DNA of 63,814 nt, the filler included, from Hausera hauseri (Eukaryota), in the NCBI GenBank assembly GCA_046269625.1. It is 11 parts of 11 records of this genome, joined end to end, with 100 filler letters (N's around TTAATTAATTAA, not from the genome) between each part and the next. Parts side by side here need not be neighbours in the genome. Positions count along the whole stretch, not along the records: positions 36,169 to 40,651 come from JBJURY010559007.1; 10 more parts are not named here. One strand, written 5' to 3'. A model generated the notes under the pieces. The model saw only the letters and a program-made list of their open reading frames with translations. It had not been told where the DNA came from and made no database searches. The first letter of the stretch is position 1. Each line of letters starts with the position of its first letter. Shown here one piece after another: positions 346-54,478 of this stretch. Both the position numbers and the translations under genes were made by a program.

Positions 346-720
346 ATTTGTCTTATTCAGCTTATTTACCTTATGACTTTTAGGAGGAGTTTTAAATTCT
401 TTGACAGTGATAATCTCTTGCTTGTTTAGTTCGGTGTCAGATAAAAAACGTTTGTCTATTACTTTATCCTTAGTATAAAGTTTATTTCGCGTTTCTCGTT
501 GATTAAGTTTACCGTTTACTAATAAGTTTTGATACGAATTAAATCTCTCAATGTCTACTCTTGGATTAATCTTTATTTGTTTCCATTCTAACAACTTATA
601 ATCCCAAGTTTAGATTCTTAATTCGTACTACATAACAATTACTTGATGTAAATGGCGCTATTCGCATGTATGTAGTTAAATAACTCTCAAAAGCAATGTC
701 TAGCGAGGTACAAACTGTAC

Positions 721-734
721 CGCTAAGGTCGCCA
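721..734 (-). promoter_or_regulatory. Primer-binding site TGGCGACC... (tRNA-Arg-like)
   Basis: Minus strand reads ...TGTAACA-TT-TGGCGACCTTAGCG: TGG (complement of tRNA CCA) 2 nt after the LTR-terminal CA, followed by gag. Confidence 0.7.
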
Positions 735-736
735 AA

Positions 737-1427
737 TGTTACAGTTGGGGTGGCCCTTATCGTCTCTTACTATAATAATAGTTTCACTCAAATTCTTTGC
801 TACTACACACAGGTTAGGACTACTCGTTCTCGAATAATCTGTTTGTACCTTAATATTTTAATTTATATTATACAGTGATGCTTGTACTGATTGCGAGGAG
901 TAAATGTCTCAGTTTACTCATTCGTGTCTTAGCTATACAATTTAATGTTGATTTTATCCTTAATGTAGTCTAATCGTCTTTAAGAGAATGCAAAACTATA
1001 TGAGGGATATTAACGACCGAAATTTGAATAACCTTTATTGATCCACACAATGGTATAAACACTTTAATAGGAGTCGAATATTCAAGAATACAATACAAAT
1101 CGTCAATTAGTACAGTTCAATAATTTGAATTATCTTAACTTGACTCTATGGTCAGCAACTGGTTTTTCTTCTCGCTTTTGGTCTGTTTCTGAGACTGCTT
1201 ATATAGTGATTTTTCAGTCCGGAAATTTTGTTAATTCATTTACAGTTGAATTCAATTTCCTGTGTTTGTACAAATTTCTCCAGTATTTACAATGGTTCAT
1301 TTATTCGACAATTTGCAACTTATCCGTCTAAATCAACTTTAACCAAATAACAAATTACAATAATTCTACAGTACAAGGTTTTGTATTCGCAATTGTCGTA
1401 ATCCGAATAGTCGGCAATTTTCTCACA
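737..1427 (-). repeat. LTR (~690 bp) of family A gypsy element
   Basis: Minus strand begins TGTGAGA (1427) right after purine tract AGGGACGAGAGA and ends TGTAACA (737) before the PBS. TATATAAG at ~1198-1205 and AATAAA at 1034-1039 lie in U3-R-U5 order. No second copy in the window to confirm the boundaries. Confidence 0.65.
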
Positions 1428-1439
1428 TCTCTCGTCCCT
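1428..1439 (-). promoter_or_regulatory. Polypurine tract
   Basis: AGGGACGAGAGA on the minus strand directly abutting the TG start of the LTR. Confidence 0.55.
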
Positions 1440-1518
1440 GAGCGGCATCTTCGAATGAGCCCATTGCGTCAGAAGAGGTGGCGCCTACCTGTCCAGGTCG
1501 TCTTAGTCGATCAATTCT

Positions 1519-2610
1519 CTACCTTAAATATGTTTCAAAATCTGGATTGTTTCGATTTTCTAAAGGGTTTGTTTCTAGATTATAACTATAGTAGGGTTTA
1601 ATATGAACGACTCGGGTGTAGCTCCCATTTGAATAGCATTTCAAATCCGTAGCTCTCGCTTGGCATACTGGACATGTTGTCTTCCCATTATCGAGTGTCC
1701 ACTTCTCTAGACAATCTCGGAAATATTTGTGGCAAAAAATTTTATTGTCTAATATCACGTAACCTTGTTTTAGATTGCCGTCGCACACGGGACATTCGTC
1801 ATCTTCCTTGTCCTAGTCGTCTCTATCTAGGTCAGCTTGGATTGTCAACTCGATGGACTCGAATATAAGGCCATTCTCATCCTGATATAGATATCCGTGG
1901 ATTACCTTCTGATTACGGTTAATGGAACTTTTTCTTGGGTCGCAACTTACTTGTATTAGGGTCCAATCCGCCATAAGGTCTCGGTCCAAATTCGGAACCT
2001 TTTATTCTACACGATAATTTTGATATTGCTTCTTTAGTAATATTCGGATTTGTTTATCCACTGGTACTATCAATTTTCCTGTTCCTTTTTATTGAAAAAC
2101 GGATGTGAGGTACTTTCCCAGCTTGGGGTTCTCCCAAATATAAGTATTTTCAAACAATTCTCTTACTGGGGCAACTTTCATATAGAACATAGCTTCTTTG
2201 ATAGTTCTTTGACTGCAATATTTTGTAGTTATCAACATTTTTGGTGAGTCCTGGGTCGTTTTCCAGTGGACATTCTCTTTTACCTTTCTTTTTAAGAGTA
2301 CATTAATTTCAGTAATCATATGTTCAATGGTTTTTCCTTCTATGAAAATTACTTCTTGGGATGTTCCTGGTTCAATCTATCCGTTTCTGTCTTTTGGCTT
2401 CTCGTCTTTCCTCTTTTTCTTGAATAAGTAGTTGAAAATAGATATTGTCTTTTTTGATTGAGATTTTTCTTCCAGTTTTTGTTTCTTTATTATTGTTTCT
2501 GGCCTCAATTCTTCTTTATATTTCTCTTGAAACTTCGATGCTCCTCCCGGTATCTTGGCTTCTTGTGCAATTGCATGTAATTTCGTTTTGATTCCTTCCT
2601 GCTCTTCCAT
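1519..2610 (-). pseudogene. Accessory ORF with C-terminal RING finger (putative E3 ligase) inside the retroelement
   Basis: ORFs 2377-2610, 2089-2319 and 1519-1788 share one frame. The end reads EDDECPVCDGNL-x-FCHKYFRDCLEKWTLDNGKTTCPVCQAR (CxxC...H..CxxxW...CPxC); one or two ligands are degenerate. Confidence 0.7.
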
Positions 2611-2719
2611 AGGATTTTGCGCAGTAATAGTAAGGTTATGATGGCCCGTTGGCTGGATATTCTTGATCGGAGAATAGATTTAATCCATCTTCTATATTTC
2701 ATATTTATTTTTTCGGGAT

Positions 2720-3867
2720 TTAGGGAACTATGTAAATATCTTGCAAATATTTGGAGAGTTGGCTGGCAGTCAGAAGTCTACTAATTCTGTTTGAGTTGTT
2801 ACTCATTGTTTCGATCATTAGCTTAAAGAAGGCTTCTGGAGTTGTCGGACGTGCCTGATCCTTTCCTTGTAGGACCCTCTCCATCTGTTTTTGGATTACT
2901 GGGTAGGTGGCCATTTCCCTAATTCCGGCAATATTTGTGTCGGGTATTTCTAATAGCTGAACTAATTGTTGCACATTATGTCCCGTCAATATACAGCCAT
3001 AGAGATAATGTTCTAACTCCAAACGGATTTGCTAAATGTCCCTTCCTCTTATGAGCTGCTCTTTTTTATACCGGTCACTTCTGCATACGATTCTTGGACA
3101 CGTTTTCGGGGATTTATTATTGTAGAGTATATTTCGACCCCATCTCTTTCTCTGATAGACACTTCTATGGGTATTCTACATCCATAATCCCTTCTGCCGC
3201 GGTTTATCGTGATAACTTTTACGTTGCGACTATCTTGGACTAGCCTATATGATCGACGATGTTCGTCCTTTTCAGTTTCAGTTGGAATTTTCTCAAATTC
3301 TAGGGGTGGAATCTGTAAGTTACAATCTTCTCTGTAGGTTACTTCAATCATAAGTTTGACAGGAAGAGTGGCTACTCTAAATTTTAGGCTGTATTTGATT
3401 TGTTCTAAACCTCTGCCATCGATTTTAAATGTACCGAACCGGTATTGGTGTATTTCGTTGGAGTTCCAAGGCTGGTTTTCTATTTTATTATATATTTCTC
3501 AGTCAGACAAATAAGTGTATACGGCTTGAATTTGGGATAGTTTGTTCCGGATTAATTATTTTAGGAAATATGCTTTAGCTTGGTTGTCTTCACGCATTGC
3601 ATAAAGGAAGATCTTGCGATTTTCTTCTGTAATGCCTTTTAGATCATTTGGTATGTCGTTAACTTTCTTGAATTTGACATAGGTTTTTGCCTTTAGCGCT
3701 TCATTTATCCTCCTATAGGTGTATTTTGCCTTTGAAATGAATACTGTAACGTATTTCCGCAAATACTCGTTGACATTAGTTCGACTATTCATACTTATTA
3801 TTCCTAAAAACAAAAAATAAAGGTCAATCCTGAAACAAAGTATTGTTCTAAATTTAAACCAATTCAT
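2720..3867 (-). pseudogene. Decayed accessory ORF fragments of unknown function between pol and LTR
   Basis: Co-oriented ~100-aa ORFs 3556-3867 and 3049-3351 (same frame) and 2720-3022; no recognisable motif. Confidence 0.35.
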
Positions 3868-3899
3868 TGTTGGATGATGGAATAACCGAGCTGTAATTG

Positions 3900-5340
3900 T
3901 CAGGTTATTCTATCATAGGTTTTTTCTAGTGGTATCATTGCCCTTAATTCCCTCTCGGTGATTTTATGACGCTTACTACGGCAGCTTTTGACAACTAATC
4001 GAAAAAACGCAATAAAAGTTATGAGAGCAAACCTTGATGATCTAATAACTGATAACATTGACAAGGTTGTCCATTTAGTTAATTTCTCTATTTTAGCAGT
4101 AGTTGCAGTTTCGTCTTTAGTTTCCTCGTTAGTTAATGGTTTTACTAAGACAATTTTGTTTAGGGTCCGTACTGTTAATGTTCTATTTTGTTTGTTTTTT
4201 GCACCTGTTTGTATTATGTAGTCTGTTTTGGGTTTCAAGTAGTTACATTTGATTTGATAACTACCTTTAGTTAATGTTACTTTCTGGTTTTTGTGTCGAG
4301 TTCGGCAGTTTATTTCTACGTCGGAATTTGGTGTTTCTTTCACAGCGAATATTATCTTATGTTGTTGTATCCAATATTTTATAGGAATCGTTTCTAGATC
4401 CTTCTTAGACAATCCACTTGTTGGGACAGTTTTGGTAGATGCAGGAGAAGTCATATTTATTTTCGTAGTTGCAATTCTGCTTGTTGTCATCTCGAATGGA
4501 ATTCCTCATATTTGATTCTCCAACTGATGACCTCCTAGGTAAATACTCGACTGGTTTGGTCGAACTTCATATAAGTCTAGCCGAATTCTATATTTATATC
4601 CTGGGGGTATTTTACAACACCTATTCGGCCTCTCGACGTCGATTTGGCAGTATTGTTTATTAGGAGCTGTTTTATTCTTTCTCATAAATTAAACCGTGAT
4701 TACTCGTCCCTTTATTAATCGTCCTTTTGTGTTTATTTGGATACATTTGTCCTTTGGGTTTTCCGACGTACTATCTATATTCTCTTCTAGCATCCGTTTT
4801 ACTGGGTCGGTAGACTGGAACATATCTTTCAGTTCTGTGTTAAGGAAGTCTCCATAAGTTCGTGGTATAACTAAGTGTGAGTCCAGGTTTATTTCGGTGT
4901 GCACTGTGTTACATTCTGGCAGATATGAGCGTTAATTAAGGGCATAAGAATGTCCGTATTCTACTTTGCAGCAAATTGTATCGTCATCTGATTCAAAATT
5001 ACAATCGGACTCTGCTTGGTTTAGTAGTTTATGAAATAGTATTTGGATTCTTCCTTTATATGGTCTCGGGGTCTTAAACCCGACACATGGGACTTCTGGT
5101 GAAAAATAATCTAGTCTTATTGCTCGTAAAAATTTAATGTCTTCTTGTTTCGATTTTTGTTCGGGGATTGATTCTGCTTTTACTTTTTCTATCTGTGGTA
5201 AAAGTTTTAGTCCGATTCTTCTGATTCCGTATATATCTTCTATCAACGTTTTGTCGTCCCACAATTGAGCGTTAGACTTAGGTGTTAGAGCAGCGATTAA
5301 TGATAAGGCTACTATTATCTGTACGTAAGATACCGGTCTT
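3900..5340 (-). pseudogene. Type I membrane glycoprotein-like ORF (signal peptide, FN3-like motifs, TM) in frame with integrase
   Basis: YVQIIVALSLIAALTPKSNAQ signal-like segment follows the integrase end (HYNLR). The frame continues through three nonsense codons to 3900, with IPPGYKYRIRL and LKPKTDYIIQTGAKN FN3-type motifs, Thr-rich stretches, a hydrophobic segment and a basic tail. Confidence 0.55.
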
Positions 5341-5369
5341 GTGACGATTGACGAAGTTTTCTCTTCTCG

Positions 5370-7481
5370 CTGTCTTAAATTGTAATGTTTAGTTGGTCGT
5401 ATATATGTCTTAACTACTCTGAATTGATACAACTTCTTCCTTACCGTTTTATTAACGTAGACCGTAGTTGGCGTGGTTCGGACGATTTCATATGGTCCTC
5501 TTCCAGTACGGGTTAGTTTCAAGGATGTACCTTTCGTTGCGACCGGGTAATGTATATAAACCCAGTCTCCTTTCTCCTTGTCATGAGGTTTAGTTTTTTT
5601 ATCATATTGCTTTTTAAATTGTTCTTGATATTCGAGTGATAATGTTTTTGCAATTTCCCAACACTTTTGCAATCTTGTCTGAAAGACGTCGGCAAAATTT
5701 GACTCTAGATCTTTGAGATTCTTTTCGTACGGTGTCATACCTAGATCTGTAGGTAAGATTGCCTCTCGTCCATACATCATGAAGAATGGTGTGAATTCTG
5801 TTGCTAGATGTGCAGTTGTATTTATAGAGAACTGCGTTCCTTCTAGGAATTTATCCCAATCCTTTTGGTCTTGAGCCACTACTGTCGGTAGTATTCGTAT
5901 GACTGTTGCGTTCATTCGTTCGACTATTCCATTACATTGGAGGTGGTATGCAGTAGTGGTTAAACGTTCGATTTCGAATATCCGGGTAATTTTCTCAAAT
6001 AATTTACTTATGAGGTTTCTTCATCGATCCGTTAAGATTTGCTCCGGTGGTCCGTATTTGCAGATGATTTTTCTTACCACCGCGTCGGCTACGGTTTCTG
6101 CCTTTTGATCAAATAGCGCCACCAGTTCGACAAAATGTGTCAACCGGTCCACGCATGTTAAAATATATTTGTTATTTTTGTGAGTTGTAGGCAATGGTCC
6201 CACTATATCTATAGACATAGCTTGCATGGGTCTATCTGGTACACTTATGGGTTTTAGTTCTGCTACGTAGTTCCTCGTTTTCTTCTGTTTTGTCGCGCAA
6301 ACTTCGCAAGCGCCTACCCAATTCTTTACATCGATATAAATGCTCGGCCAATAATACCTATTTAATATTCTTTTTAGTGTATTCTTCCAAAACACGTGTC
6401 CGTCTAAATATGAATCATGTTCGGCCATGAGCACTTCTGTTCGTAATCCTTTTGGGATAACTATTAGTTTTTTCCTTTCCGCTCATAATATAGAATATTG
6501 TCTTGGTTTGATGCGCGATATTTATGTCCGTGTTTTTGTAAATGTTTCTTTAGTTTTCGTCCTTTGGGTATTTTGTCGCATTGTGCGAACTCAACGATTT
6601 GCTGAATAACCTTGTCTTTAACTTGCTGTACTGTGATTCTGATCGTTTTATACAGTTTTAAAGTTCTTTGTCGTTCAATTATTTGTTCGAGTTGTGCTCT
6701 TTTCATTGTAGTAATCGCGCTTGTTTTTGTCTTTAATCTTGACAGTGCATCGGCATCGATGAGTTTATTACCTGGTTTATATTGAAATTCAATGTTATAT
6801 CGTGAAATTTCCTCGATACAACGATTTAATCTACATGTTGGGTTATTAGCTCGTCCCTTCAGTGTCGTGACTGCTTTGTGATTGGTTACTATTATGATCT
6901 TTGTCCATAGACATAGACATTAAAGTGTCGTAGTGCCTCTTTACCGCTAGCGTTTCTAGTTCAGTAACTGAATTATTCTTTTCTGCTTTCTTTAATGAAC
7001 GTCCCCCATAAGCTATTGGGTGTTCTAATTCTTCGTTTTCTTGTTTTTGAGCCAATTCATATCCTATTCCTGCGTTGTTTGCATCTGTTTTAGTGATAAA
7101 TGGTAGACCAAAATCAGGATATCTTAGAACTGTTCGCTTGTTAGAATTTTCTTCATCTTGTCGAATGCCTTTTGTTCCACATCTTTCCATTTTCATTTGA
7201 TCCTTTTCTTTAGTAAACGATATAATGGTGCGTTAATTTTTGAATTGTCTGGTACATAAGTGGCGTAATATCCACATAGGCCTAACAAGTGTCTTAACTC
7301 TTTGATTCTCTGGTTCCATACAATCGGATATTTTATTTAGCAGAGATTTGTCTGGTTTTGATCCTCATTCTCCAACTATGTGTCCAAGGTACGATGCGGC
7401 GTTTTGTGCCCATTTACATTTCTTTGGGTTTAGTTTCAACCCTGCTTGTTCCAGTCTCATGAGTGTATCCTCAATATCCTT
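5370..7481 (-). mobile_element. pol: Ty3/gypsy pol (RT C-terminus, RNase H, integrase), family A, decayed
   Basis: GLKLNPKKC..YLGHIV (RT); TDANNAGIGYELAQ..HPIAYGGRSL..TELETLA and YKPG..DADALSR (RNase H); H..GH/CEVC zinc finger, SIDIVGPLP, ILTDR, TPFFMMYGRE and GPY (integrase). Stops and frameshifts present. Confidence 0.95.
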
Positions 7482-7581: not shown

Positions 7582-7671
7582 TTCAACGGTGTATACAAAG
7601 ATGCAACGAAGAATTTCAGTTTTTCTCCAAAGTTGGAGAAGTGGGAGAATGAAATTTCATCCTGATCGGAA

Positions 7672-10600: not shown

Positions 10601-11658
10601 TAATCCCTGTAGATGATGATCTTTATGACGCAAAGAACTTAAAATTTGGATCTGATAACAATGCCGTTTCTGACGATATTGATGAAACCTATTATCGCTT
10701 TGTGCCGAGATGCATATACACTTAACCAATTGATTATGCAGTGAATCAACAAATCGATACGGATGAAATTTTGAAAACAAAAAGGTTCAGTATAACATCC
10801 CTGAATCGTACTCTTTGTTTCTTGCAAAGTCGATGGGAAAACGTGTGCGAAGAAATTCGAGACGTGGAGGAAATTTCTCTACGACCATTTTTTGTGAATT
10901 TGTTGATCGAAATTCCCAAGCCTCAAATGACCGAATTGATAGATTCGTTTAAGAATTCTCTTGATGTTCTAAATTCCAGAACGAAAATTAAATCTCTGTC
11001 GGAAAGTGAAAATTACTGTTATCAGTTGCATGCCCATCAATTAAAAATCAGCACAATTGAACCGCTGATCAATCTGTACTGCCAGCGGTATGATGATGAC
11101 ATCATTGGACACAGACTGACGAAAGTCGTAAATGAAAACGTTATTCAATCGAAGAATTTATTAATCAAAATGAATGAATTGGAAGAACTATATCAGAAGG
11201 TTACAAGATGGAAATCGGCGAATTTTAATAAATACCGTGAACATTTAATGTGCATTGACTCAAAAATAAATACCAAACTTGCTATTTCGATATTAAAGAA
11301 ATTAGATGGAGAATTGAATCATCAATACGAACAAATAAATCTGGCTAAAAATTGCTTACAATCCATAAATCTAACAAATTATTCGACGTTAATTGACCAC
11401 CTGTACTTATTAAACTCATTATAGTCCATTGAAACCAAATTAGAATCCTTGCCAATGAAAATGGACAGAAGTTTGCACGAGTTGTCGTCGGTATTTAACA
11501 AATGGACCGAACTTGAGAAACTCGAACTTGCCATTATCGGAATTGAAATTGAAATTGATAACTACATCAGTGAATCGAAAGATGACAAGAACCGAAAGAA
11601 GACATCCTTGGGAATGTTAACGGCTCTCTTCAGAGCCACAATTATTGATTTTAATGAG
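7672..11658 (+). CDS. Large acidic low-complexity protein with C-terminal helical/coiled-coil (possibly spectrin-repeat) region; interrupted by in-frame stops; 3' truncated
   Basis: 1017-aa D/E/S/N-rich ORF, continued in the same frame by 10741-11424 and 11449-11658. LQSRWENVC and VFNKWTEL resemble dystrophin/nesprin-type spectrin repeats (weak). Confidence 0.55.
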
Positions 11659-11922
11659 NNNNNNNNNNNNNNNNNNNNNNNNNNNNNNNNNNNNNNNNNN
11701 NNTTAATTAATTAANNNNNNNNNNNNNNNNNNNNNNNNNNNNNNNNNNNNNNNNNNNNGTTGAAGTTAATTAAGATTAATGTAGACTTGTTGATCATCAT
11801 CGGTCAAGTGACTCAATGCTAAGATTGATGACGATTTGATGGTAGAAGGTGTATCACACGTTTAGAAAAATTGATTACGATAATTTTGTGTTAGAGTTAA
11901 GAGATTGCATTAGTAAAGAAAA

Positions 11923-13066
11923 TATGGCAGAAGGGGGCGAAAGAATAGTGGCAATCCCACAGCAGCAGTTAGATGTCATGATGGCAGAATACAGTGCAAT
12001 GAGAACTGCTTATGAGGAGACTAAGAAGTTATTGGAAAAAATGCAGTTAGGGAGTCAGACCCCGATTAAAGAAGGGAAACCATATAAGTCAGGTTTGGGT
12101 AAGGACGACCCGGTCAGAAAAGCACTGGACAAAATAGAGACTATGGTGACAAAGGTAGATATGAACAATAGACATCAAAATATTAGGACATTCGTACAGC
12201 CATTCAGCGGAAGGGAAACTAAAACATTTAAGACGTGGCTGTCGCAGATCGAAAAATACGCATATTTAGTTAAAGCCACTGAGGAAGAAAGAAAGGAATT
12301 GGCATATATGACTTCTGATGGATTGGCGAACGACTTCATTAGACGAAGATTTACGTCGCACCCAGAGGAAACGTGGGAAGAATTTAAGAAAACGCTAGCC
12401 AACAGATATGCCGAGGTCAGTGATGCACACTACGCGGTAGCAGCTCTGAGAAAGATTAAGCAAGAAAAGGAAGAAGCGGTCCAATTGTATGGAGACCGAA
12501 TGCTGAATATGGCTGAAGAGGCGTACACTGGACAAAACATAATGTCCGAGGAGATAGGAAAATTATTAATCCCCATTTTCATAGATGGTTTGAAGAATAC
12601 AAGAATCAAAATCAAGTTGATGAAAGATGAACCGAAGACTATCCAAACAGCGATACAAACGGCAGTAGAAGAAGAGAACTTCAACAAAAGAATCAACATG
12701 AGGTTAGGCAGGGAAAAACATGAGGACAGAAACGAAGAACAGATGGATATAGACCAATATAGACCAAAGTGGCATAGAAGACAGTATGAACATGAACGTC
12801 ACAGAGAAAAGCGGTTCGACAACCGGAAGTTAATCCAAGAAGTTGAAAGGGAAAGGAAATGCTTTAGTTGTGGAAAATCGGGACATTTCGCTAGAGAATG
12901 TCGAAGTAGAACAGCGAAACCGATCAATGACAGACCAAGAATGGGAAATAGTGGAAATTGCTACAGATGTGGTGAAGCAGGGCATTTTACCAGGGTATGC
13001 AAAGCAAATAGTACAGAAGAAGTTAGAGTTCCTAGGCAGCAGGGAAACGGGAGTCCTGCTGTGTAG
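11923..13066 (+). CDS. gag: Ty3/gypsy Gag with two CCHC zinc knuckles (family C)
   Basis: PFSG..FKTWL, TWEEFKKTL, KQEKEEAV, FIDGL, EQMDID, CFSCGKSGHFAREC and CYRCGEAGHFTRVC. Confidence 0.93.
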
Positions 13067-13101
13067 AACGGCCCATGCAGAGCAGGAGAATAGTAAGGGC
13101 C
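13042..13101 (+). promoter_or_regulatory. -1 programmed ribosomal frameshift signal (slippery heptamer + H-type pseudoknot)
   Basis: G GGA AAC in gag frame; 5-nt spacer; stem TCCTGCT(G)TGTA / TGCA(G)AGCAGGA; loop GGCCC (13070-74) complementary to GGGCC (13097-101). The -1 frame is open into ORF 13075-13749. Confidence 0.8.
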
Positions 13102-16100
13102 CACCAGAATAGAAAAAGAGAAAATTCATATCAACGGAACACCGAATACGATAGTCAGGAAAAGAACTCAAGAAGAATCAGGCCGAATATTAGACCAATA
13201 CGGAAGAAAGAAGAGAGATATAGGACTAGAATCATGAAGCGAAGGGAACCGAATGACAGGGACTACAGAGTGGCGAGCTCGAGAAGAAATAATAAGAGAG
13301 AAAGTATGAAAAGAAATTACTACGGAAAATACTATGAAAGAAACAGTAGAAGTTACAACAATACAAGAAGAACTTTGAATTCAAAAAATAACAGGTTGGA
13401 TCGAACCCCAGTAAAAAGGAACAGTTATCGAGAATATGCTAAAACGAAAGGCAAAGAAACTGATAAAGTCAGAGAAACCGGAAATCGTGAAAACCGGCTA
13501 CGTACGCAGCAACAGTGTGAGAAAGCTGAGCAGGAAACAAGAAGTGAAGCAGCGCAAAAATACCGAGATGGAATAGAAAATAAGAGGCATAGTGAACTGG
13601 AGCCTATGGAGGTGGACGAAACTAGACGCAAGGTACAGGGAACAAGAAAAAACCCCCAAAGCAAATCCCACCCTGTCCCAAACACAAGAAGGTCGTTAAC
13701 ACCCACACCCCGATTCCGAAAAAACAACGTCCCTGGCCCGAACAATTAAAAGTGGAAGGTACCAGAAATGAATGCAACAAAAGGGTGAAACAGAAGCAGA
13801 GATATGAAATAAATGTTATAGAGGATCCAAGTTCATATATTTCGGAAAAGTTAGAGTCAGATGTTTAGTAGACACTGGCGCACAAGTTAGCATACTCAGC
13901 GAACGAGTGTACCGGATGTTAAAGATCAAAGGAAAATTAATAAAGCAAGACATTGATCTAAGATCCGTATCCGGAAGCGCGTTAAAAGTATTGGGAAAAA
14001 CCGTACTGGAGTTCCAGATCGGAGACAAAATAATGAAGCACAGTTTTCTAATAGTGAGAAACATGTGTCGAAGCGTGATTATTGGAAGAGACTTCCTCTG
14101 GAAACACAACGTGCAAATTTATTTCGACCTAAAGAATATCAGAGTGGAAGACCAATATGTGGATCTAGAGGACGACATACACATCGCGTCCATCGTTCGA
14201 GTCAGAAAGAAGATAACTATGAAGCCGAACTCTGTGAATATTGTGGTAGCGTCATTAAAAAGAAACAGCTATTGGCACGAAGGGGTAAGCGTAACAGTGA
14301 CCTCACTAAATGAGAAAGAAATAATCGACGAGCCGGGACTGCAAACAGTGTGTGGAATCGTCAAATTAAACAAAAAAAGAGAGATACCAGTAATGATAGT
14401 CAACCATACTGGACAGACAATAACGCTACAAAAGGGGTGTGTCATGGCCAAGGTAGATAAAAGCGAACCGTCGATATGTGCAGCTGTGAACGTGGCCGAA
14501 AGAAATAAGAAGGAGATGATCCAAGAAAAACTAAATAAGTATTGGGAAGAAAAGGCGCGAAGAAGAGCACATCGAGACCGAGTGTTGACAGAGATAAGAG
14601 AAGGGCTATGGATGCGAAAACGAGGACAGATGATTGCAGAAATTAGTCAAGATGACGAAAGAACTAAGAAGTTGTTGGAGACGCTAAAAGTAGATGAAAA
14701 ACATAAATCCTGTATAGAGAACTTTGTAAGAAAACACGCGGACGTTTTCGCCATATCAGATATGGAGTTAGGGCGAACACAGACGGTTACTATGAAAATC
14801 GAGACGGGAGACCATGCTCCTATAAGCCTAAAGCCGTACAGAACACCACTAGGAAATAGAGAGGTGGTAGAGAAAGCGGTGGAGGAGATGCTACGCGCGG
14901 GCATTATTGAAAGGACAAGATCCGAATGGTCGTTCCCAGTAGTAATTGTATCAAAAAAAGATGGCAGCCACAGATTTTGTGTGGATTATAGGGCACTGAA
15001 TGCCATCACCAGCAACGTCAGTTACCCGATGCCGTTAATTGACGACATTTTGGGATTGCTGGACGGAACTACCTACTTCACGACATTGGATGCCAGGTCA
15101 GGATTTTGGTGCATACCTATGTCCACAGAGGCAAAAGCAAAAAGTGCATTCTGTATGCACACAGGCCTTTACGCCTGGAATGTCATTCCCTTTGGCCTCA
15201 AAGGATCACCAGCAACCTATATGTCTCTGATGAATATAGTGTTAGAAGGGATGCAGGCATATGCCCTGGCGTATATTGATGATATATTGATTTTTACTAA
15301 GGGTGACATAAAAGACCACCTAGAACATGTGGAGAAAGTGTTCAACCGATTGAAGGAGCATAAAGTGAAGTTGAAGCTAAGCAAATGCGAGTTTTTGAAG
15401 GAAGAGACAAAGTACTTAGGTTTTGTAATTACCAGGCAAGGAGTAAAACCAGACAACGAAAAAGTGGTAGCCATCAGGTCCATGGCAGCACCAAAAACCA
15501 CCAAGGAAGTACGCGGATTTCTTGGAACGTGCGGATATTACTGACGGTTCATTCCAAATTTTTCCGTAATAGCCGAGCCGTTAGTAGCACTAACGAGGAA
15601 GTTTGCCCGATTCCGCTGGGACGAGAACTGCCAAAGAGCTTTTGAGTATTTGAAAGAAAGTTTGACGGTGGTACCCTTGCTAATGTACCCCAACACTAAT
15701 AAAGAGTATATACTGTATACAGATGCGTCAGAATTCGCCGTAGGAGCAGTACTGGCCCAGAGGGATGGTGAAGAGATGGTGCAAGGGAAGAAGGTGGATA
15801 TGGAAAAACCAATTTATTTCTTGTCCCACAGACTAACCAAATCTCAAAGGAAATGGTCTGTGACAGAAAAAGAAGCATACGCAATCCACTACGCCTTGCA
15901 GAAATTAAACTTTTACCTGCACAACAGTAAATTTACAGTTAAAACAGATCATATGCCACTGAAGGCAATGATGAAAGCAGATGTGCAGAACAAAAGAATT
16001 CAACCGTGGATTCTGAACCTGCAGGGGTATGACATCAACATAGAATATATCCCGGGGCCACAGAATACTATCGCCGATCTGCTGTCGAGACTACCAGACA

Positions 16101-16417
16101 AAAAGAACTATGAAGAACAACTAGAAGAGACTACAGAAGAAGGCACCCCAGAGATTGATGAGCATACGCTGCAAATTTCAGCGATTGAGTCAACAGAAGC
16201 TAAAGAAGATACAACAGGAGAGTCAGCAGTGGAACAAAAGGGGGAAGATGAAAAGGAACTAAATATGAAGGTAGAACAACTAAAAGATGAAGAGCTGCAC
16301 AACATTATTGAAGATTTAAAATCAGGGGTAGAAGAAAAGTTAAAGAAATGGAAAAAGTTTATGCTAGAAGATGAAAAATTGTATAGAGTTGGAAATGAAG
16401 AGAAAAGAAACATCTAA
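13042..16417 (+). mobile_element. pol: Ty3/gypsy pol (Arg-rich N-terminal extension, protease, RT, RNase H), family C; truncated before integrase
   Basis: CLVDTGAQVS; FCVDYRALN, TTLDARSGFW, PFGLK, YIDDILI; LYTDASEFAVGAVL, EKEAYAI, TDH, ADLLSR. Nonsense codon at 15542-15544 (YY*RF) and frameshifts near 13740-13845. Confidence 0.95.
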
Positions 16418-36168: not shown

Positions 36169-38620
36169 TCGTCCAAACAATCTACCTGATTTTACAGAAA
36201 CATTTATGCCATCTAAACCCCTATTTGCCAGTACTAAAATGGTCGGCAAAGATGTCATTATACAGAATACCGATATCAATTCTTCACTGGACGAGACACT
36301 CCAACTTTACAACATCCTTTTTAGCAAATTCTATAATCTGTTGGATGACTTTATCCTTTCTCTGTTCTGTCGAAATTTTAATTTCTTTATCCATTGCCAA
36401 GGCGCGTTGACGATCTATTATCTCTTCGAGTTGGTTTTTCTTCATTACAGTGATTGCACTGGATTTGGTCTTTAATCTCGATAATGCATCAGCGTCTACA
36501 TGTTTATTCCCTGACTTATACTGGAATTTGATATTATATCTGTAGATTTCTTCGATCTACCTGTTAAGTCTGCATGTCGGGTTATTTGCCCTGCCTTTTA
36601 AGGTCGCAACGGCCTTGTGATCAGTGACAATTATAATTTTCTGTCCGTATACGTTGAAGTGTCGAAGTGCTTCTGTTAAGGCTAGAGTTTCTAATTCGGT
36701 AACAGAGTAATTTTTCTCGGCCTTTTTCAAGAAACGTCCTCCATAAGCAATCGGATGCTCTAAATCTTCATCTTCTCTTTTCTGCGCTAATTCATATACA
36801 ATGCCTTCTTTACTAGCGTCTGTCTTGATTATAAAGGGTCAGCTAAAATCTGGGTATCGTAAAACAGGTTCACTTGTTAATATTTTCTTCATCTCATCGA
36901 AAGCTTTCTGCTCGACATCCGTCCATTTTCCTTTAATTCCTCTTTTAAGCAAACGATATAGAGGTGCGTTTATCTTTGAATTATCCGGCACAGGTTGCGT
37001 AATACACGCATAATCCTAGCCAGTGCCTTAGTTCTTTTTGCTTTTGCGGTTTCATGCAGTCTGATATTTTATTTAATAATGATTTATCTGGCCTCGATCC
37101 TCCTTCTCCAACTATATAGCCAAGGTAGGATATTGCATTTTGAGCCCATGTGCATTTTTTGCATTTAATTTCAAGCCGACTTGTTCTAGCCTCATCAATG
37201 TGTGCTCAATATCCTTTAAGTGTTCCTCTTCGGTTATTGACGCTATCATCACGTCGTCTAAGTACGCAAAAGCGTGGTCCAATCCCACTAACATCTTATT
37301 CATCATCCCTGTAAATATGGCTGGCCCGGTAGTAATACCGAACGGTATGACATTAAATTCATAAACAGCATCGTGCGTTTTAAATGCTGCTTTATAACGG
37401 TCTTCGTCCTCGATCTCAACTTGCCAATATCCGGATTGTAAGTCCAAAGTGGTAAACCATTTTGCTCCTGAGAGTCTGTCTAGGGCCTCCTTGACGGACG
37501 GTAATGCGAAGGAATCTTTCATCATAAGGTTATTTAAGGCTCTGTAGTCAATACAAAATCGATGTTTTGTAGTACCTTTCTTCTTAACCATGGGGATTGG
37601 TGAATACCAAGATCTATAGCTGGGCCTAATTATATCGGCCTTAAGCATTCGTTCAACTTCCTTCGTTATTTCTGGCCTTAACAAATGTGGTGGAGGGTAC
37701 CATTATGGCAACTTCTGATCCTCGATATCTATTTCTTCGTTCAAAACAGGCTTTTTCTTGAACGGAATAGTCAGTTTTAATGTTTTCGATCTACTAATAT
37801 CTTCTTCGTCCTTAGCAATAATCGATTTATGTCGACATAACAATTTATAGAATCGACAATAAGACTCAGGTGAAAACTTACTTTCAACATAAGGTAGAAA
37901 TTCGGCATACTTGTAAGGCTTCTCTTCAATAGTTATAGATGACACTCTATACGTATCTCCTAGAGTCGTATAAGCATGAAGCTTGACGAGAGTCTGCGCA
38001 TTATTAGCTATTCTTATCGGTACATGACCGGAGTGTACTCTTGCTAATGTATTGCTGAGTAATATATTCGGATCTAACTTAGCCCTTGGTTTAAAATATA
38101 CTGGTTGATCGTCATCTTGATGTATTTGAGCGTAAATTATCATTTTTGTTCTCGGTGGAATATCTTCGTCTACGGGTATCCAGACCTCTTCAAATTTTCT
38201 ATACTTAGCGTTTTTCACGCCCTTATTTGGCCTGATTTCTATCAGCTTCCCTGCTTGTAAGTCAATTGCTATATTTGGCAATCTTTTCAGTGGATCGCAT
38301 CCCAGAACTACGTCGTCAGCTAATTGCTCCATGACTGCAATTTCATGATGGAAAAGTTGTCCAACTATTTGGATTCGGGGTTCCATTTAAACATCGGTTT
38401 TGACATTTGGCCAAAAGCTCCTGTACTTCCTGGATCTTTCGTAGATTGTGGGTATAATTATTCTCTCAGTGTTTGAGGTATTGAATCATTTTTAATGTAA
38501 GACATCTCGGATCCTGTATCGATTAAGGAGTAAACTTCCCAATCCCCAATAATGATTTTGACAAAGAGCCTTCCTTCTATTATTGTTCCGAAACGGGTTG
38601 ATGTATACTGTGAGCGTTTC
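36169..38620 (-). mobile_element. pol: Ty3/gypsy pol (protease, RT, RNase H), family A sister copy, decayed
   Basis: LFVKIIIGDWEVYSLIDTGSEMSYI; FCIDYRALN, TTLDLQSGYWQ, YLDDVMI; HPIAYGGRFLKKAEKNYSVTELETLA; ANNPTCRLNR..DADALSRLKTK, nearly identical in protein to 6720-7100. Confidence 0.95.
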
Positions 38621-38936
38621 AGCGCCGATATTTTATGTCCATTGATTAGGATTTCGGGGGAGATACTATATTCTCCCACAATTGTCTTAATTCTTCCTTG
38701 GGATATAATTCGTTATTTTCTATGTGCAATTCCTCCACTTCATGTGTACTAATTAATGCTTCTAGATTGTTAGTGTGTAATTCCATATTCTGGAAGGTTT
38801 TTAACCTTTGATTATCCCAAACTGTTTACCTAGTTTCTATATTCCGAGGTTTTCTCGGAGAATATAACATCTTTGGACCATCTGTAGATTGTCAATAACA
38901 CATTTTTTGTAGGATGCCGTAACGTTTCGTTCCTTT

Positions 38937-40649
38937 TTAGGGATCTTCTATATTAATTGTTCTTCTATAGATTTCCGTCTGGCATGAACTAATTGACCGT
39001 TTGTCACAGTCTTCATAGAATGGAGCGGTAGGAGGTAACATAGGTAATGGCACTGTGATGACAGAGTATGTCTTGTGTCGGTTTATTCCTGGAAGTCCTT
39101 CTCCTCCCTTAGGCTGGTTATCATCTGCCTTATTTCTTCGTGTATTATGTTTTGTAAATTTCTGCTTTCGCAAGAATATCGCTCTTCTTCTTCGTTTACG
39201 ATTGTAATATACGACATGACGTTTTACGTCTGATTTCCATCTGTTTTCTTCGTATGCCTTTAAGAATTTTCCAAAGGGTGTTATGATCGCAGTCAGTATT
39301 TAGCATGAAAATCGGGTCAACGTAAATATTTCATACCCATTAATTACGGCTTGGATGATTGCTTTGATTATTTGTATCAGAAAATATGTCGCTAAAAATC
39401 CGGATGCAGCTTGTCCGAAAATTAAGAATCTTCCCCAAATTTTGTAGAGTATTTCTGTGGTCACTCGCTGATAATGATTTACGCCAAGTAGGGATTCCCA
39501 TTTAGCCTGGTATCGTATATCATTCACTACCGATGCCATGGCTCGATTTAGCTCGTGTGTTCGTTGTCGTGGAAAGGCAAGGAATTGTCTGAAAGCCTCA
39601 ATTTCCTTCGGTCTGTATATGCCTTTCGATGAGGTGTCTTGAAATTTATCGTCTGTAATTCCCTTCGCGAGATTTGTTCCTGTCAATTTATTTGGAGCGG
39701 CAATAATATCTCTATTTGGCAAGCTGACCCAGTCCATTTCACTACGTCTAAACATGGGTTCTCCTAGGCTTGCCTTACAATTTTTGAGGATAGTTGATTG
39801 GGTGGCGTTATCCAGTAACACTCTTGTCAGTGGTGTAGCTAACCTTGCAATATTTTGGTAAATAACAAGAAGTTCCTGAATGCAGCGTTTTTCTTCCACG
39901 TTGATGGGTACATCGCTCTTTTCACATTTATAGGTTAACAATACTTCGCCTGTTACCCGACCGAAAATTCCTTCTCTCATGGGAATTACCGGAGAAGATA
40001 ATTCTGGGTTTGCATATATAAGAGCCATTTTGGTCCTCATGATCTTCGTGTCCAACTTACAGTCATTCATTATCATTTTGTGATATAATTCCGTTATTCC
40101 GACTTGCCCTTTATAGTAGAAGAAATCATCTCTATTTTTCAGATAATCTTTAATGCGGATATCCTGTGTTTCTAACTTATAAGTTTTTGCACTTATCTCC
40201 GTTTCTGTGACGGAAAACGCCTCATAGTTCGTGGCAAACATCACTACGTCACAGCGAGAAGTCATCTCCTTTTTTATAAATTCCAATCCATGCTGATCCG
40301 AAATTAATATGGTGGGCGTAGAGTGTTCTGATACGTCTTCGCGTGACCTTGAGTTGGTATCTGATTTATCCACATACCGTTTTCCGGTAGTTTCGTTAAA
40401 CCGCAATTCATTAATTTTAATAAAATTACAACTTCTTCCAGAAGGAGGTTCCCATATTATGACAGAACTTCTAAAAGCACAGGTCCAGTCTTGTAAATGA
40501 CATTTTTGATTCTCAGTGTATAACTTGGTGACGCTATGGAACATCACTTTCTGTGATCGCATTTCCGATTCGTAGAAATCCACGACTACCACGTTCGATT
40601 ACAATCCTTTTCTGGTGTCATATTCTGCCCCATAACAGTGTCTGCTGTG
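38937..40649 (-). pseudogene. env: Chuvirus-like / herpes gB-type envelope glycoprotein, C-terminal two thirds with TM and cytoplasmic tail
   Basis: CKLDTKIMRTKMAL..GIFGRVTGEVLLTYKC..RCIQELLV..TPLTRVL..C..PMF..W..GIYRPKEIE..F..WGRFLIFGQAASGFLATYFLIQII..VINGY matches the chuviral G signature from memory. In frame through a stop at 39300-39302 to a PTAP-containing tail. Confidence 0.85.
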
Positions 40650-43190
40650 CANNNNNNNNNNNNNNNNNNNNNNNNNNNNNNNNNNNNNNNNNNNNTTAAT
40701 TAATTAANNNNNNNNNNNNNNNNNNNNNNNNNNNNNNNNNNNNNNNNNNNNATTTTGGTTTAAACCAAGGATATCTTTCTACTGTAATGATTTCATATAA
40801 TATATGGTATATTTTCGATTCCAACTAAAGATACATATTTGAATAAGTCGCCTCTATACTTTGATGAATGACTTCATTGCTTTTCCCAAGATTAAAAAGT
40901 ACATGTTAAATGTCTAAGTCCTTTCTCGACATTTGACTTTAAGGTTTTATCCAAACTAAAATAGATTTAATATTGTTTGCTACATTATTGATCTTTAACC
41001 CAATGTCCATCTAGATTCAATTTTAGAATTCTATTTCATCATATATTCATCCGTTGTAATTTGATGTTTATTCGTGATTTAATTTTAGAACTTTAAGTCA
41101 TTGTATATTTTATTGTTGTAATTCAGTTGTATCGATCGCTCGTTTAACCGTGTATGAAAAGCTTTAATTGAATTCTCGGAGATGATGAGAAGTTTTCTGG
41201 CATATAGAAGATCATCAATCTTTGAACATAGCCCTTCATATATTCAGGTGGTATTTTAATCGTTACGGATAGCCATCGCTTCTACGGTCTAACAGAGTTA
41301 TAATCATCTATTCGGATCTACAGGAACTATACCGTCTCATCTCCAACACTTGTTCGTCATATCAATTTCTTGGGAGAATTCAGACATATTCGTAATTTCC
41401 GGTTACTCAATTTTGACATCTACACGTGAAACGGTAATTTGATTATACCAATATATCATTCCTTGTCTACTCGTACACATCTATATAAATAATAAAGGAA
41501 GACTGTTCATATTAATCTTCATTATTTACTTGTGATGTCATTAACGATATCATCTCTCAAAGTATCATTGAGTAATTACACATCTGCGTTCCATACATAG
41601 TTTATATGTTGGTACAGGGGTCGTCTTTGGACCTTTAGCTCGTCACAACATACAAAAATTTAGGTACCCACATTTGCTGAGAAATACATTCACTTCTTCT
41701 TGTTATTTAATCATAATTTCTCCGCTCGTCTCATGATCTGGATCTGTGAGTTCATTGGTCCTGTTTCTTACAACCCTTCCATTGCACTCGACAACGATAA
41801 TAAAAGGGATCAACTATCTCAGGCACCATTTCAAATATTGACACAATAATCATTATGATCAATTATTTCTTCAAACCCATCCAAACACTCAAGATTTCCT
41901 AATACTTCACGTGCTCCCCATAAAATCTTCTCACAACATAGCAATCTCAGGCTTCATTGTCTCTCATGATCGTCAGTTAATTCTCACCTCTATCACTTAT
42001 TCAAACACAGCAAGGCTTATTAATTCCTTTCCTAGCGACGAATATTTTAGCTTAATTGTTAAATATCTTTTAAACATGGCAAATAAAATAGGGCAAAAGG
42101 ATTATAGTCATTACTGCATACCTTTCCATGCAATTAAAGTGAACACGACATCCATTGACTAACAGCACAATCAATGAACAACCGACAAAAGGAAATCAGT
42201 CCGGCAACAACAACATTAGTATCTGGAAAAAATGACTATATTAATTTCAGACTTAAAATTATATCCATTTCTGATGCAAATCTCACATTATAACCCCATG
42301 GCCAAACGTTAAAATACAAATGTGGTTTTCTTGAAAATTACGACATACACATATGAGTCACGATTCTATATTTATATTTATATATTCGAGTTGGTTGTAC
42401 AAGGTGCAAGACCGAATACGACAAATATAACTCAACGTTAACGCTTCTTAGATAAATTACACGATGACATATAATCATAATCGTTATGATGCTATAAACA
42501 ATATCAACACTCTGAAACAAAACTACGCATCAAAATACGAAGACATGTGTTGTTGCGAATCCATTATTCTCTGATCCGTGGGTCCTTCCGAATTACTCAT
42601 AACTTGACTTCTTATAATGTAGATCAGACCCGAAAATTTAATTGAAAGATAAAATTTTCTGAAATTAGATAATTAAGCATATTTCAATACGTTAACCCAA
42701 TTGTACTATAAATAAAACAATCAATATGCAATCTATTCTCGTTACCGCAGATTTTAGATTTACCAATTTGTTCACATATCTTGCATGTATATTGCATAAC
42801 ACCCGTTGAATACTCAACAAAATTGAATTGTTTATTATATCCAATTGGTTATCTAATGCAAACAGTGACTATCATTGTCCCACCATAAGCCCTGGGTCAC
42901 AGTGCAGGTCTACAACGTTTCATTTGCATTCTCCTGAGTAAATATTTCGTCTAATTGATCGCGTATTCACCATGTACCTTTACTCGCTGAATGTTCCGAG
43001 AAGCTTTCATTCAATCATTACTCCATTTCATTTTTTGAGCATTTTCATTATACAACTTTGCGCAACATACCTTCGATATCAATGTTCGTAATCCAATTTA
43101 TTTTTCAAAATATTTATTCATTAATACAAAATTACATAATCAGAAAATAACAATAAATCACAAATAAACTGAAAAGAAAAGAATTTTTAC

Positions 43191-50318: not shown

Positions 50319-52534
50319 GCCGGTACATTTCCGGGTCTTGCAGCAGCTCAATGTCTCGATCCAGTGACATTAGAGCTGACACCCAACTCATTCCCGGTAT
50401 GGAATAAAAGTTGAGTGGCTCCAGCCTATCTTCAGCCAACTCTTTCACTCGAAACGCTTGCAGAACATCGGCTAATAAGTACACGTCCAGTTTAAGATAC
50501 TTGAGCATGTAATCCAACATGTTTCTAGAGCCGAGATCTGTCCAACACCTCTGTGCTTTCCGGTATTCATCCTCTGCGATACCTGTCCATCGCAGCGGTA
50601 ATTCCTCTGCTGTCCGCAGTCGCTCATATGATGTTGCAAAGTCATATGAAAATATGCCTTTGCTGCGTGCAATATATGAGGGGAACTGCGTCAGTGCTAT
50701 CGGCACATATGGCAAGGCATTTACCAGCTTTGCCAATGATTCATTAAGAAATTGCAATGAATCAAGAAAGCGTACCTAGAACCGGTTTATACGAGCAGAC
50801 AGTGACAGGTATTTCTCCTTCGTAGTCGGAATTATGGATAGTTCCCAGTGCGGAAATCCGTTTATTGCCCATTTCAAAATATGGCGACAATCATAACCCC
50901 TGAAGTTATAAAATACCACCGGTAAGAATGGCCGTACACGCCTTTCAAAATTGCACGAATTACATGCTGCTCCGAGATATCGACCAGTAAAATGATCGTG
51001 ATCCGGTACTAGCCGTTCCATTGCGTCTAACGGTTATATTTTGTGCCACAAGTAACATTCATCTGTGACTGAAAATGTCAGGCGTTCATCTTCATTTGTC
51101 CACATCAAGGGTTTATGGCTATTTCTATTGTACCAAGGTACGATTTCAGTTCTTACTATGGTTTGCAACTTCTGCAAGAAATCATGTACACAATTCCATC
51201 AGTGGAAAACATAATATTGTTGTTGACCTGCAGCCTTTATTGGGACAAACAACATATCGACTACGATTTAAACATGTCTTTGATCACATATCTTGTGCCG
51301 TGGTAAGATAGCTTCAATATCGGCATATACTACATATGCAGGACTGTCTGTTTTTGACTAATCAGTGAACCTGAGTTCCTGTTTGACGGGCATGATATAC
51401 ATTGTGGTTCCTAATGAATTTTGTCTGCACAGAGTCACATGTTTCGCATATGTTGTTTCCGACCTGAATTCATGAAGACATACAGGACACCATTTACACT
51501 GTATCCAATTTTGGAGGAAATGGTCGTGCTCTATGTTCAGTATTCTGTCCAGATTTGTCACTGCAACGTAATGGCACTTTTCATTTTGTTCCAGTAGCAG
51601 CAAATTTACTGAGCGGTCATTTGGGTTCCGACTACGATAGATTATATCCACATAAGGATTTTTGTAAATTTCTTCATCCGCCGATATTTCTACGATTGTG
51701 TTGTATTGGAACACGTTGATTGACAGTGTAGGATTACGCCGTTCACAAGCCGGAATGGATTTCAGTTTCATCGGCATCCAGTTTCATCAAAATCCAATTT
51801 GGAAAAATATTTCCGATAATGTTTTGGACGAGATGCACTATGTCTGTCCACGTCGTCATAATTCAATATCGCCAGAATACTGTAAAGAAAACAGTATTCA
51901 TCGTTAGTATTTTTTACATTCACTACCACCAGACTGCTTCAGAGTTGCAAATGTCGGTATGAATGATCGTTCAGACAAATATATTATGTCACTCGACTTC
52001 GTTGAGATAAAGCCGATGGTGATAATTCGTATAATTCGCCATCCACTACCCTTTCCCCTGTAGTTAGCGATTTTGTCCTAGAGATTTTCGCCTACGTCGG
52101 CAATAAAATCATTGGCATATGGTACAGCTCGCTGTGACAGGTACCATTGTTTTCTGTCACTTTCAACGTTTTCAAAATTCTGCAACTGCATAATATTGCA
52201 CTTTGCAGTGTTGGTGTTGGAATTTCTCCACTTCTGATTCCAACCGGTTGCACACATTTTTCAGAACGTGTCTCAATTGCGTTGTTGTTGTTGTTTTCGC
52301 CGACATGTTTGCTTTTATGTCCACGCACGATTTGTTCAGATCGTACTTGACATTAATGTTGGATTTCTGTTGTATCTGATCCTCTTGCTGTTGCTGCTCC
52401 TGCTGATCCTGCTGTTGTTTTTCTTCTTTCAGCCCGGTACTGGTTATGATGTATTTGTCCAGACCTGTTGATGCCTTACTTTTCCTATTGGTTGTTGTTG
52501 TTGAAGGGATGTTGCTGAATTTTGTTGATTCCAT
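50319..52534 (-). mobile_element. Polinton/Maverick- or adintovirus-type protein-primed DNA polymerase B relic, copy 1
   Basis: NPTLSINVF..VNLLLL..HYVAV, CPVC..H..C, DHDHFTGRYLGAACNSCN (Endo VII-like), PVVFYNFRGYD, RFLDSLQFL, KGIFSYD, YLKLDVYLLADV, YSIPGMSW. Confidence 0.88.
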
Positions 52535-52749
52535 TAATATTTGTTTTTTCGACCATCGCTGAAACTGGTTTAAGTGGTCCTGGTACTCATTGTAAAATTA
52601 TTCATAGTTGATTTCATCATCAACTACTGAACAACCGGGACAAATATAGGCCCGTTTGCCGTGCACCATTGTGGCGTCATAGTATTTCTCCATTGCACTA
52701 TGGCAACCATCAACGTCGTGCACTGTACTTGTAGTGTACCGTGGGTACA

Positions 52750-54478
52750 TGGAGCTTTTGCGCGAAACGCTTGAAACACATCGGCTAACAGGTACACATT
52801 CAGTTTAAGATACTGAAGCATGTTCTCCAATAGGTTTCTATAGCCGAACTTGCTCAAAACGATTGCGCTTTGTGATAATCTTCTTCCGTGATACCGGGCC
52901 ATCGCGGTGTTAATTCATCTCTCATCTGTAGCTGCTCATACGATATCGCAGTCATATGGGAATATGCCTTTGCTACGTGCAATATGTGTGGGAAACTGAG
53001 TCAATGTTAGCAATACATGTGGCAAGGCATTTACCAGCTTTGCCCATGATTCATTGAGAAATTACAATGAATCAAGGAAGCGTACCTGAAACCGGTTTAT
53101 ACGAGCAGACAGTGAGAGGTATTTCTCCATCGTAGTCGGAATTGTGGATAGTTCCCAGTGCGGACATCCGTTTATGGCCCATTTTAAAATATGGTGAAAA
53201 TCATAACACCGGAAGTTATGAAAAGTCACCGGCAGAATGGCTGCACACGCCTTGCCAAATTTCACGAATTGGATGCTGCTCCGAGATATCGACCGTAAAA
53301 TAATCATGATCCGGTACGAGCCGTTCTTGTGCATTTAACGGTAATATTTTGTGGCACAAGTAACATTCATCGGTGGCTGCAAACATTAATGGTTCATATT
53401 CATCTGTCCACAACAAAGGTTTATTGCTATTTCTACAGTACCAGGGTGCGACTTCCGTTTCTACTATTGTTTCCAACAGATGCAGGAAATTACGTACACA
53501 GTTCCAGCCATGAAAAACTTAATATTGCGGTTGACCTGCAGCTTTTATCGGGGCAACCAACATACCGACAGCCATTGGAACATGTTTTTGGTCATATATA
53601 TAGTATCGTGGTAAGATAGCTTATATATCGGCATATACTACATATGCCGCACTGTCAGTTTTCGACCAGTCACTGAACCTCAGTTCCTGTTTTACTGGTA
53701 TGACATACATTGTTGTTCCTGTTGCATTTTGCCTGCACAATATCACATGCTTTTCCCATGTCGTTTATGATATGAAGCCGTGAAGACATACAGGACACCA
53801 TTTGCATCGTATTTGTTTTTTGATAAACTGATCATGATCCATATTTAGCAATCTATCCAAATTTGTCACGGCCACGTAATGATACTTTTCCTTTTGCTCC
53901 AATAACAACAAATTTATTGGGCGACCATTTGGGTTCCGACTACGGTAGATTATATCCACATGGGGGTTTTTGTAAATTTCTTCATCCGCCAGTATTTCTA
54001 CGATTGTATTGTACCGAAACACGTTGATTGTCAGTGTCGGATTACGCCGTTCAAATGTCGGAATGGATTTCAGTTTTATCGGCATTCAGCTTTCATCGAA
54101 ATCTAATTCGGAAAAATATTTTTGATACTGTTTTGGACGACATGCACTATGTCTGTCCACTTTGTCGTATTTCAATATCGCCAGAATACTGTAAAGAAAG
54201 CAGTATCCGTCTTTAGTATTTTTTACATTCATTACCGCCAGAGACTGCTTCAGAGCTGCAGATGTCGGTATAAATGATCGCCTGGACAAATATATTATGT
54301 CACTCGACTTTGTTATAATAAAGCCGAGAGTGACAATTCGTATAATTCGCCATCCACTACCCTTTTCCGTGTAGTTGGCGATTTTTTCGTCCAGCTTTTC
54401 GCCTATATCGGCGATAAAATCTTCCGAATATGGAACTGCTCGATGTGACAGGTACCATTGTTTCCTGTCACCTTCAAT
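52750..54478 (-). mobile_element. Polinton-type PolB relic, copy 2 (tandem, 3'-truncated)
   Basis: NVKNTKDGYCFLYSILA, FERRNP..INVF, PDHDYFT, FHNFRCYD, RFLDSL, YLKLNVYLLADVFQAFR; colinear with copy 1 at an offset of ~2310 bp. Confidence 0.88.

Follow-up and report, generated by a model that had tools for sequence, protein, structure and literature searches.

In the available parts of the study by Chary and Hayashi (eLife 2026, PMC13524379), HSV/gB-type envelopes are the only ones in nematode, bryozoan and platyhelminth errantiviruses, whose gene order is GAG-ENV-POL, and arthropod gypsy elements with a chuvirus-like glycoprotein are also reported. The supplement of that study (PMC13524379) holds 36 elements from nematodes, 10 from bryozoans and 9 from flatworms, as counted from term occurrences; its text cites Sacco et al. 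2022 for nematode endogenous retroviruses in which the env/pol order is flipped in metavirus. According to the excerpted account of Arkhipova and Yushenova (2019, PMC6431247), the giant planarian LTR retrotransposons Burro/GYPSM1 carry env in frame between gag and pol; this env matches mononegavirus glycoproteins, and accessory domains are present. The gene order of the element described here is already published, and the element is an additional divergent family in this known group. The nematode elements reported by Sacco and co-workers in 2022 are also said to have a continuous gag-env-pro-pol frame.

The window, that is, the whole 63,814-nucleotide stretch of Hausera hauseri DNA analysed here, is made up of 11 short contigs with N spacers between them, and the env-pol element lies on the contig at 36169-40651 (Table 1). 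Every feature of the element is encoded on the minus strand; one contig edge cuts off the 5' part of env, and the other comes before the integrase. Along the contig the domains run from env through protease and RT to RNase H, and no gag lies between them. RT matches PF00078 with an E-value of 1.7e-29 and RNase H matches PF17919 with an E-value of 2.1e-29 (Pfam), and the protease is read in two frames, at about 38571-38452 and 38431-38261 (profile matches of 11 and 19 bits, respectively). The protease-RT spacer is possibly a dUTPase-like segment as in Burro, although it has no Pfam match. A gag profile made from six relatives gave no match on this contig, and the same profile detected a gag elsewhere in the window with a score of 43 bits. 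The linker between the env anchor and the protease matches neither the gag nor the protease profile and contains no CCHC motif. ARAGORN found no tRNA genes in the whole window, and no long repeats were found inside the contig.

These results bear out most of what the preliminary description had read from the locus. It had placed a gB-type glycoprotein gene co-oriented with and directly upstream of protease-RT, and PF24664, protease, RT and RNase H do follow in that order on the minus strand; it had also seen no gag between env and protease, where the gag profile finds none. The G frame, described as running to about 38650 with a few stops, extends from 40649 to 38649 (667 codons, five internal stops). 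Its figure of '~350 nt' between env and protease holds only for a particular choice of env stop, as about 130 nt separate the end of the frame itself from the protease motif at 38520. Measured from the env anchor, the protease motif of the window copy lies 917 nt away, or about 306 codons, and the env and protease frames differ. The PTAP motif in the linker is not common to the relatives at the same place (a PSAP motif occurs in the linker of P0009 only) and was therefore given no weight. Altogether, with five stops in the env frame and several frame changes, the window copy is decayed, and an intact protein is beyond its coding capacity.

Table 1. Features of the env-pol element (contig 36169-40651) and of a related element (contig 1-7481) in window coordinates.
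Feature	Position	Strand	Evidence and remarks
Env reading frame, gB-type (class III) fusion glycoprotein with cytoplasmic tail/linker	38649..40649	-	5' end cut by contig edge; PF24664, frame reading, fold model
Env internal stops (n=5)	near 40600, 39301, 38938, 38893, 38827	-	Frame read through stops
Env predicted membrane anchor	39339..39410	-	Hydropathy; residues 414-437 of read-through frame
Linker, env anchor to protease	38572..39338	-	Env-to-protease frame change inside; PTAP motif 39021-39032
Retroviral-type aspartic protease	38261..38571	-	Catalytic motif 38520; interrupted by a stop and a change of frame
Protease-RT spacer	37706..38260	-	Collinear with relatives
Reverse transcriptase core	37157..37588	-	PF00078; catalytic motif 37264
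RNase H	36536..36925	-	PF17917/PF17919; internal stops; contig end 36169, before integrase
Related element copy: end of RT, RNase H, integrase	5433..7481	-	Separate contig; Pfam and nucleotide comparison
Related copy, post-integrase protein, in frame after integrase, internal stops	3990..5351	-	Signal-like stretch 5277-5351, FN3-like segment 4188-4376, predicted anchor 3990-4058
Related copy, broken DEDD-type exonuclease-like gene	2864..3171	-	Weak match to RNase_T ORF of L001; E 0.001 and 0.005 (search limited to this contig)
Related copy, RING finger	1660..1800	-	PF13639, E 6.7e-6, just under curated cut-off
Weak gag-like start	3-190	-	Contig 1-7481; gag profile E 0.001

The stop-free env stretch at 39303-40598 (432 amino acids) matches the Pfam family PF24664, Monjiviricetes_fusion, with an E-value of 2.5e-40. 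An AlphaFold model of env, built with a 98-row alignment, reached a mean pLDDT of 85.7. When this model was searched against the PDB, herpesvirus glycoprotein chains came top, with a best E-value of 7.7e-4 and a TM-score of only about 0.3; a sequence profile of env (98 rows) also ranked herpes gB first among PDB entries, weakly (best E 0.004). The profile and fold searches thus both point, if weakly, to the gB-like protein named in the preliminary description, and together with PF24664 they place env among the class III (HSV/gB-type) envelopes. A single-sequence PDB search with env gave no match, nor did a word-based search of proteins of length 237-756 or a DNA-pattern scan of metagenomes with the window env.

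A full HMMER search of 1.84 billion proteins retrieved 462 matches to env at E ≤ 0.001, the best of which are long polyproteins with about 30% identity. When 22 of these matches were scanned with Pfam, 10 had protease and/or RT-RNase H-integrase downstream of env within a single chain, and the same env-then-pol order was found in three of three cluster members. Env before protease is therefore not confined to this copy: in all 13 long relatives examined, env reads unbroken into the protease, whose motif lies 131-391 residues past the anchor. Since these 13 were picked for length, env-pol fusion is to be taken as common, not universal. The env and pol of the window contig are both matched by the same relatives and in the same order, and P0155 and P0009 have a protease downstream of env. 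Two metagenome loci, L003 and L001, gave a view of relatives at the DNA level. L003 is a single 2,693-codon frame with a CCHC motif at 341-356, env at 583-1181, protease at 1274, RT at 1588, RNase H, and integrase at 2086; L001 is a single 3,426-codon frame with an open 5' end, followed by an exonuclease (RNase_T) ORF. In L003 and P0157, env has gag marks ahead of it within one frame, and a CCHC motif takes this place in P0003, P0008, P0009, P0011 and P0020. No long direct repeats were found in L001-L003, which are also cut at their ends. A DNA-pattern scan of metagenomes with alignment A3 found at least three loci, and scans of viral contigs and of prokaryote genomes with the same alignment found none.

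The pol of the element is of the Ty3/gypsy type, as indicated by the protease, RT and RNase H on the contig and by RNase H followed by an H2C2-rve integrase in a related element with 73% identity elsewhere in the window and in public relatives. The RTs nearest to that of the window carry gypsy-type Pfam sets, and none of the env-pol relatives has BEL-type Pfam domains. An Anakin-type element, with a BEL/Pao pol and env after the integrase, was excluded on the position of env upstream of the protease and on the lack of BEL-type domains in the relatives.

Several of these relatives show further features. Aspartic-protease domains are repeated between env and RT in P0002, P0004, P0006, P0007, P0008, P0011, P0152, P0155 and L001:2-10282; most relatives with repeats have two to three protease motifs, P0008 has five and P0152 eight (four Pfam stretches), some of them past the integrase. 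L002:61-4266 encodes a gag with CCHC and a weak ubiquitin-like segment (E 0.0047), one in-frame stop and then env in the same frame. P0003 (HBK71150.1), a 2,627-aa gag-env-pol polyprotein, is annotated as a hypothetical protein from a 9-kb contig of a Flavobacteriaceae MAG and is likely animal DNA in a bacterial bin.

Copies of the element were examined in one public run (X1), perhaps the window's own source, in which contig pieces were placed at 80% likeness and depth does not equal copy number. In total, 16,553 pieces at 80-100% identity cover all 30 bins of the stretch; most are 80-95% alike, with 554 at 99% or above and 13,846 under 95%, and only 1% continue into unlike sequence. The X1 copies vary in length within the junction zone. 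Such a pattern is consistent with a family of many copies that spread with env, linker and pol as one unit.

Taken together, we read the contig as the central part of a decayed Ty3/gypsy retroelement in which a gB-type env directly precedes protease-RT-RNase H, likely one of the published GAG-ENV-POL errantiviruses (Burro-like, and likely of the flatworm group), and give this reading a probability of roughly 0.85. Two proposals of the preliminary description hold in part. Its G-Pol polyprotein has a counterpart in the single env-pol frames of the relatives, but env and protease are in different frames in the window copy, which on its own thus does not demonstrate a polyprotein. Its gag-env-pol order is supported by relatives with gag before env, but the window contig itself carries none of gag, LTR, PBS and integrase and thus only part of that order.

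The same gene order would also be compatible with env and pol in separate frames bridged by a programmed ribosomal frameshift. The offset of the env and protease frames in the window copy points this way, as do an env anchor-protease distance that exceeds those of 12 of the 13 relatives and the in-frame stop between gag and env in L002. However, the 13 long relatives are unbroken across this junction, although the way they were chosen favours long chains, and the window copy has so many other stops and frame changes that decay explains its offset. The differences in junction-zone length among the X1 copies further mean that the env-protease frame relation varies from copy to copy. We consider a frameshift improbable.

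The trees bear on the possibility that the glycoprotein is a stray piece of a chuvirus, a chance fragment as raised in the preliminary description, or that assembly has produced a chimera, with an unrelated gypsy pol next to it. In a FastTree phylogeny of 136 env rows, from which P0153 was left out, the window env falls into a 23-row clade with a support of 100 that holds env-before-protease proteins (P0134 was flagged as such by motif alone). Outside the clade are 113 rows, most of them stand-alone proteins about 650 residues long, among them the BEL/Pao-type row P0034 (DUF5641), which has env after the integrase end. The RT tree is less clear: the window RT sits on a long branch, in no supported group and not with the env-pol relatives, and its best identity is 51%, to P0003, with 44-51% to other gypsy RTs without a PF24664 match. 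The env-pol label requires three changes on this tree, on which the arrangement may have a single origin. The env phylogeny thus places env within a retroelement clade, and the RT phylogeny is uninformative on congruence. The unsupported RT placement leaves some room for a chimera, as do the shortness of the contig and the env-protease junction, which has the lowest summed depth and is spanned in full by none of the eight X1 pieces listed. Against it, the relatives matched by the env of the contig are also those matched by its pol, in the same order; env clusters with the envs of retroelements and not with stand-alone chuvirus-like proteins; and diverged X1 copies extend over env, linker and pol. 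We regard a chance fragment or chimera as very improbable.

Least probable of all is an ENV-GAG-POL order with a short gag hidden in the linker, a position for gag that the preliminary description had also weighed: the linker of about 250 codons with its PTAP motif would offer the space, and such elements with a short gag are reported for two mites in the excerpts of PMC13524379, but the linker lacks any gag profile match or CCHC motif and relatives in the same env clade have gag upstream of env.

If the contig is the middle of a GAG-ENV-POL element, an intact copy would be translated as one long polyprotein, as the single frames in the relatives suggest. Following established membrane-protein biology, the hydrophobic stretches before env and after gag could act as an internal signal that directs the env ectodomain into the ER; the env anchor would stop transfer across the membrane, and the protease would free RT, RNase H and integrase in the cytosol. 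Budding particles could then carry the class III fusogen and move between host cells, and we infer, as did the preliminary description, that the element is enveloped.

The related element lies on contig 1-7481 and shows 73% nucleotide identity to the env-pol element over 819 nt of RT-RNase H. The weak gag-like start on this contig may belong to a tandem neighbour element. LTR elements of rotifers are known to carry exonuclease ORFs (PMC5408684, in excerpt). Past the integrase, a layout of signal, FN3-like domain and anchor is seen in this related copy at 3990-5351 and in P0003, P0004, P0152, P0155 and L001. The latter five have at least two hydrophobic stretches and a cysteine-led segment in this region; P0017 and L003 (two of the eight sources examined) have the hydrophobic stretches without the cysteine-led segment. 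Leave-one-out profiles relocate each cysteine-led segment, with 31 bits for the related copy in the window and 10-14 bits for the others, the motif pattern being drawn from the same sequences and so not independent. When the five-row segment profile was searched against the PDB, 19 of 20 matches at E up to 10 were FN3-containing by name, with a best E-value of 0.005, and Atlas returned FN3 membrane proteins at 0.88 and 0.82, which serve as leads only. Pfam fn3 matched none of the five aligned segments, a word-based protein search with the L001 post-integrase protein gave no match, and AlphaFold, run without an alignment, modelled its ectodomain at a pLDDT of 34. Judged from sequence, the post-integrase segment is likely FN3-like.

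A second signal-FN3-like-anchor unit is found in L001 at residues about 1581-1780, among the protease copies and upstream of RT, and P0154 has a similar segment. The post-pol ORF of Cer1 was rejected as a match to the post-integrase protein, being a nuclear export protein in the available part of PMC10309623. The literature searched holds no description of a post-integrase FN3-like membrane protein, although Sacco 2022, Grohme 2018 and the eLife figures may mention one; the available sections on Burro (PMC6431247) mention no post-integrase membrane protein, and the main text of PMC13524379, in its available parts, does not mention fibronectin, polyprotein, exonuclease or RING.

One may guess that the post-integrase protein is an attachment protein. 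The polyprotein would then carry two surface proteins, with a gB-type fusogen ahead of the protease and, past the integrase, a type I membrane protein of FN3-like make-up as its attachment partner, similar to herpes gD/gB, a proposal that we hold tentatively and regard as doubtful. Herpes gB requires partner proteins for cell binding, and to our knowledge such a two-protein entry machine has not been described for LTR retrotransposons. For the way in which retroelements with gB-type envs could choose their target cells, the conserved and likely FN3-like ectodomain carried by that polyprotein offers a concrete candidate.

Elsewhere in the window, the plus strand at 7666-11424 holds open frames of 1,019 and 232 codons, one stop apart, with no convincing Pfam match, and at 11846-16417 an ordinary gypsy gag (Ty3 capsid, CCHC), protease, RT and RNase H. 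The contig at 16535-24538 consists of a 67/68-nt tandem satellite with a higher period of 135 nt, and a tandem duplication of about 2.31 kb at 50319-54478, 80-89% alike, contains a type B DNA polymerase fragment (PF03175, E 9e-6).

Among known systems, Anakin, the BEL/Pao element with a chuvirus-like glycoprotein (Dezordi et al., PMC7642597, PMC10084718, both in excerpt), has a glycoprotein of the same Pfam family as the window env; it differs in its BEL/Pao pol, the window element being a gypsy element with env upstream of the protease. Of the features of Burro, as far as the available account goes (PMC6431247), the in-frame env-pol is seen in all 13 long relatives examined, though not in the decayed window copy, and a ubiquitin-like segment is hinted at in L002. 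The BIR, BCL2 and MATH domains of Burro were not seen in the window element, whose 5' part is missing. With the GAG-ENV-POL errantiviruses, as excerpted from PMC13524379, the window element shares a gB-type env upstream of a gypsy pol and the multi-copy state, although the window copy, unlike theirs, is broken and cut. Its env domain I-II resembles by eye those of six Schmidtea mediterranea C1a envs of that supplement, domain I being cut in the window; the envs of its relatives look similar to them too, and this likeness suggests a flatworm as the probable host. The family thus leaves the principle of this published group unchanged and adds to it a member whose env shares about 30% identity with its closest relatives.
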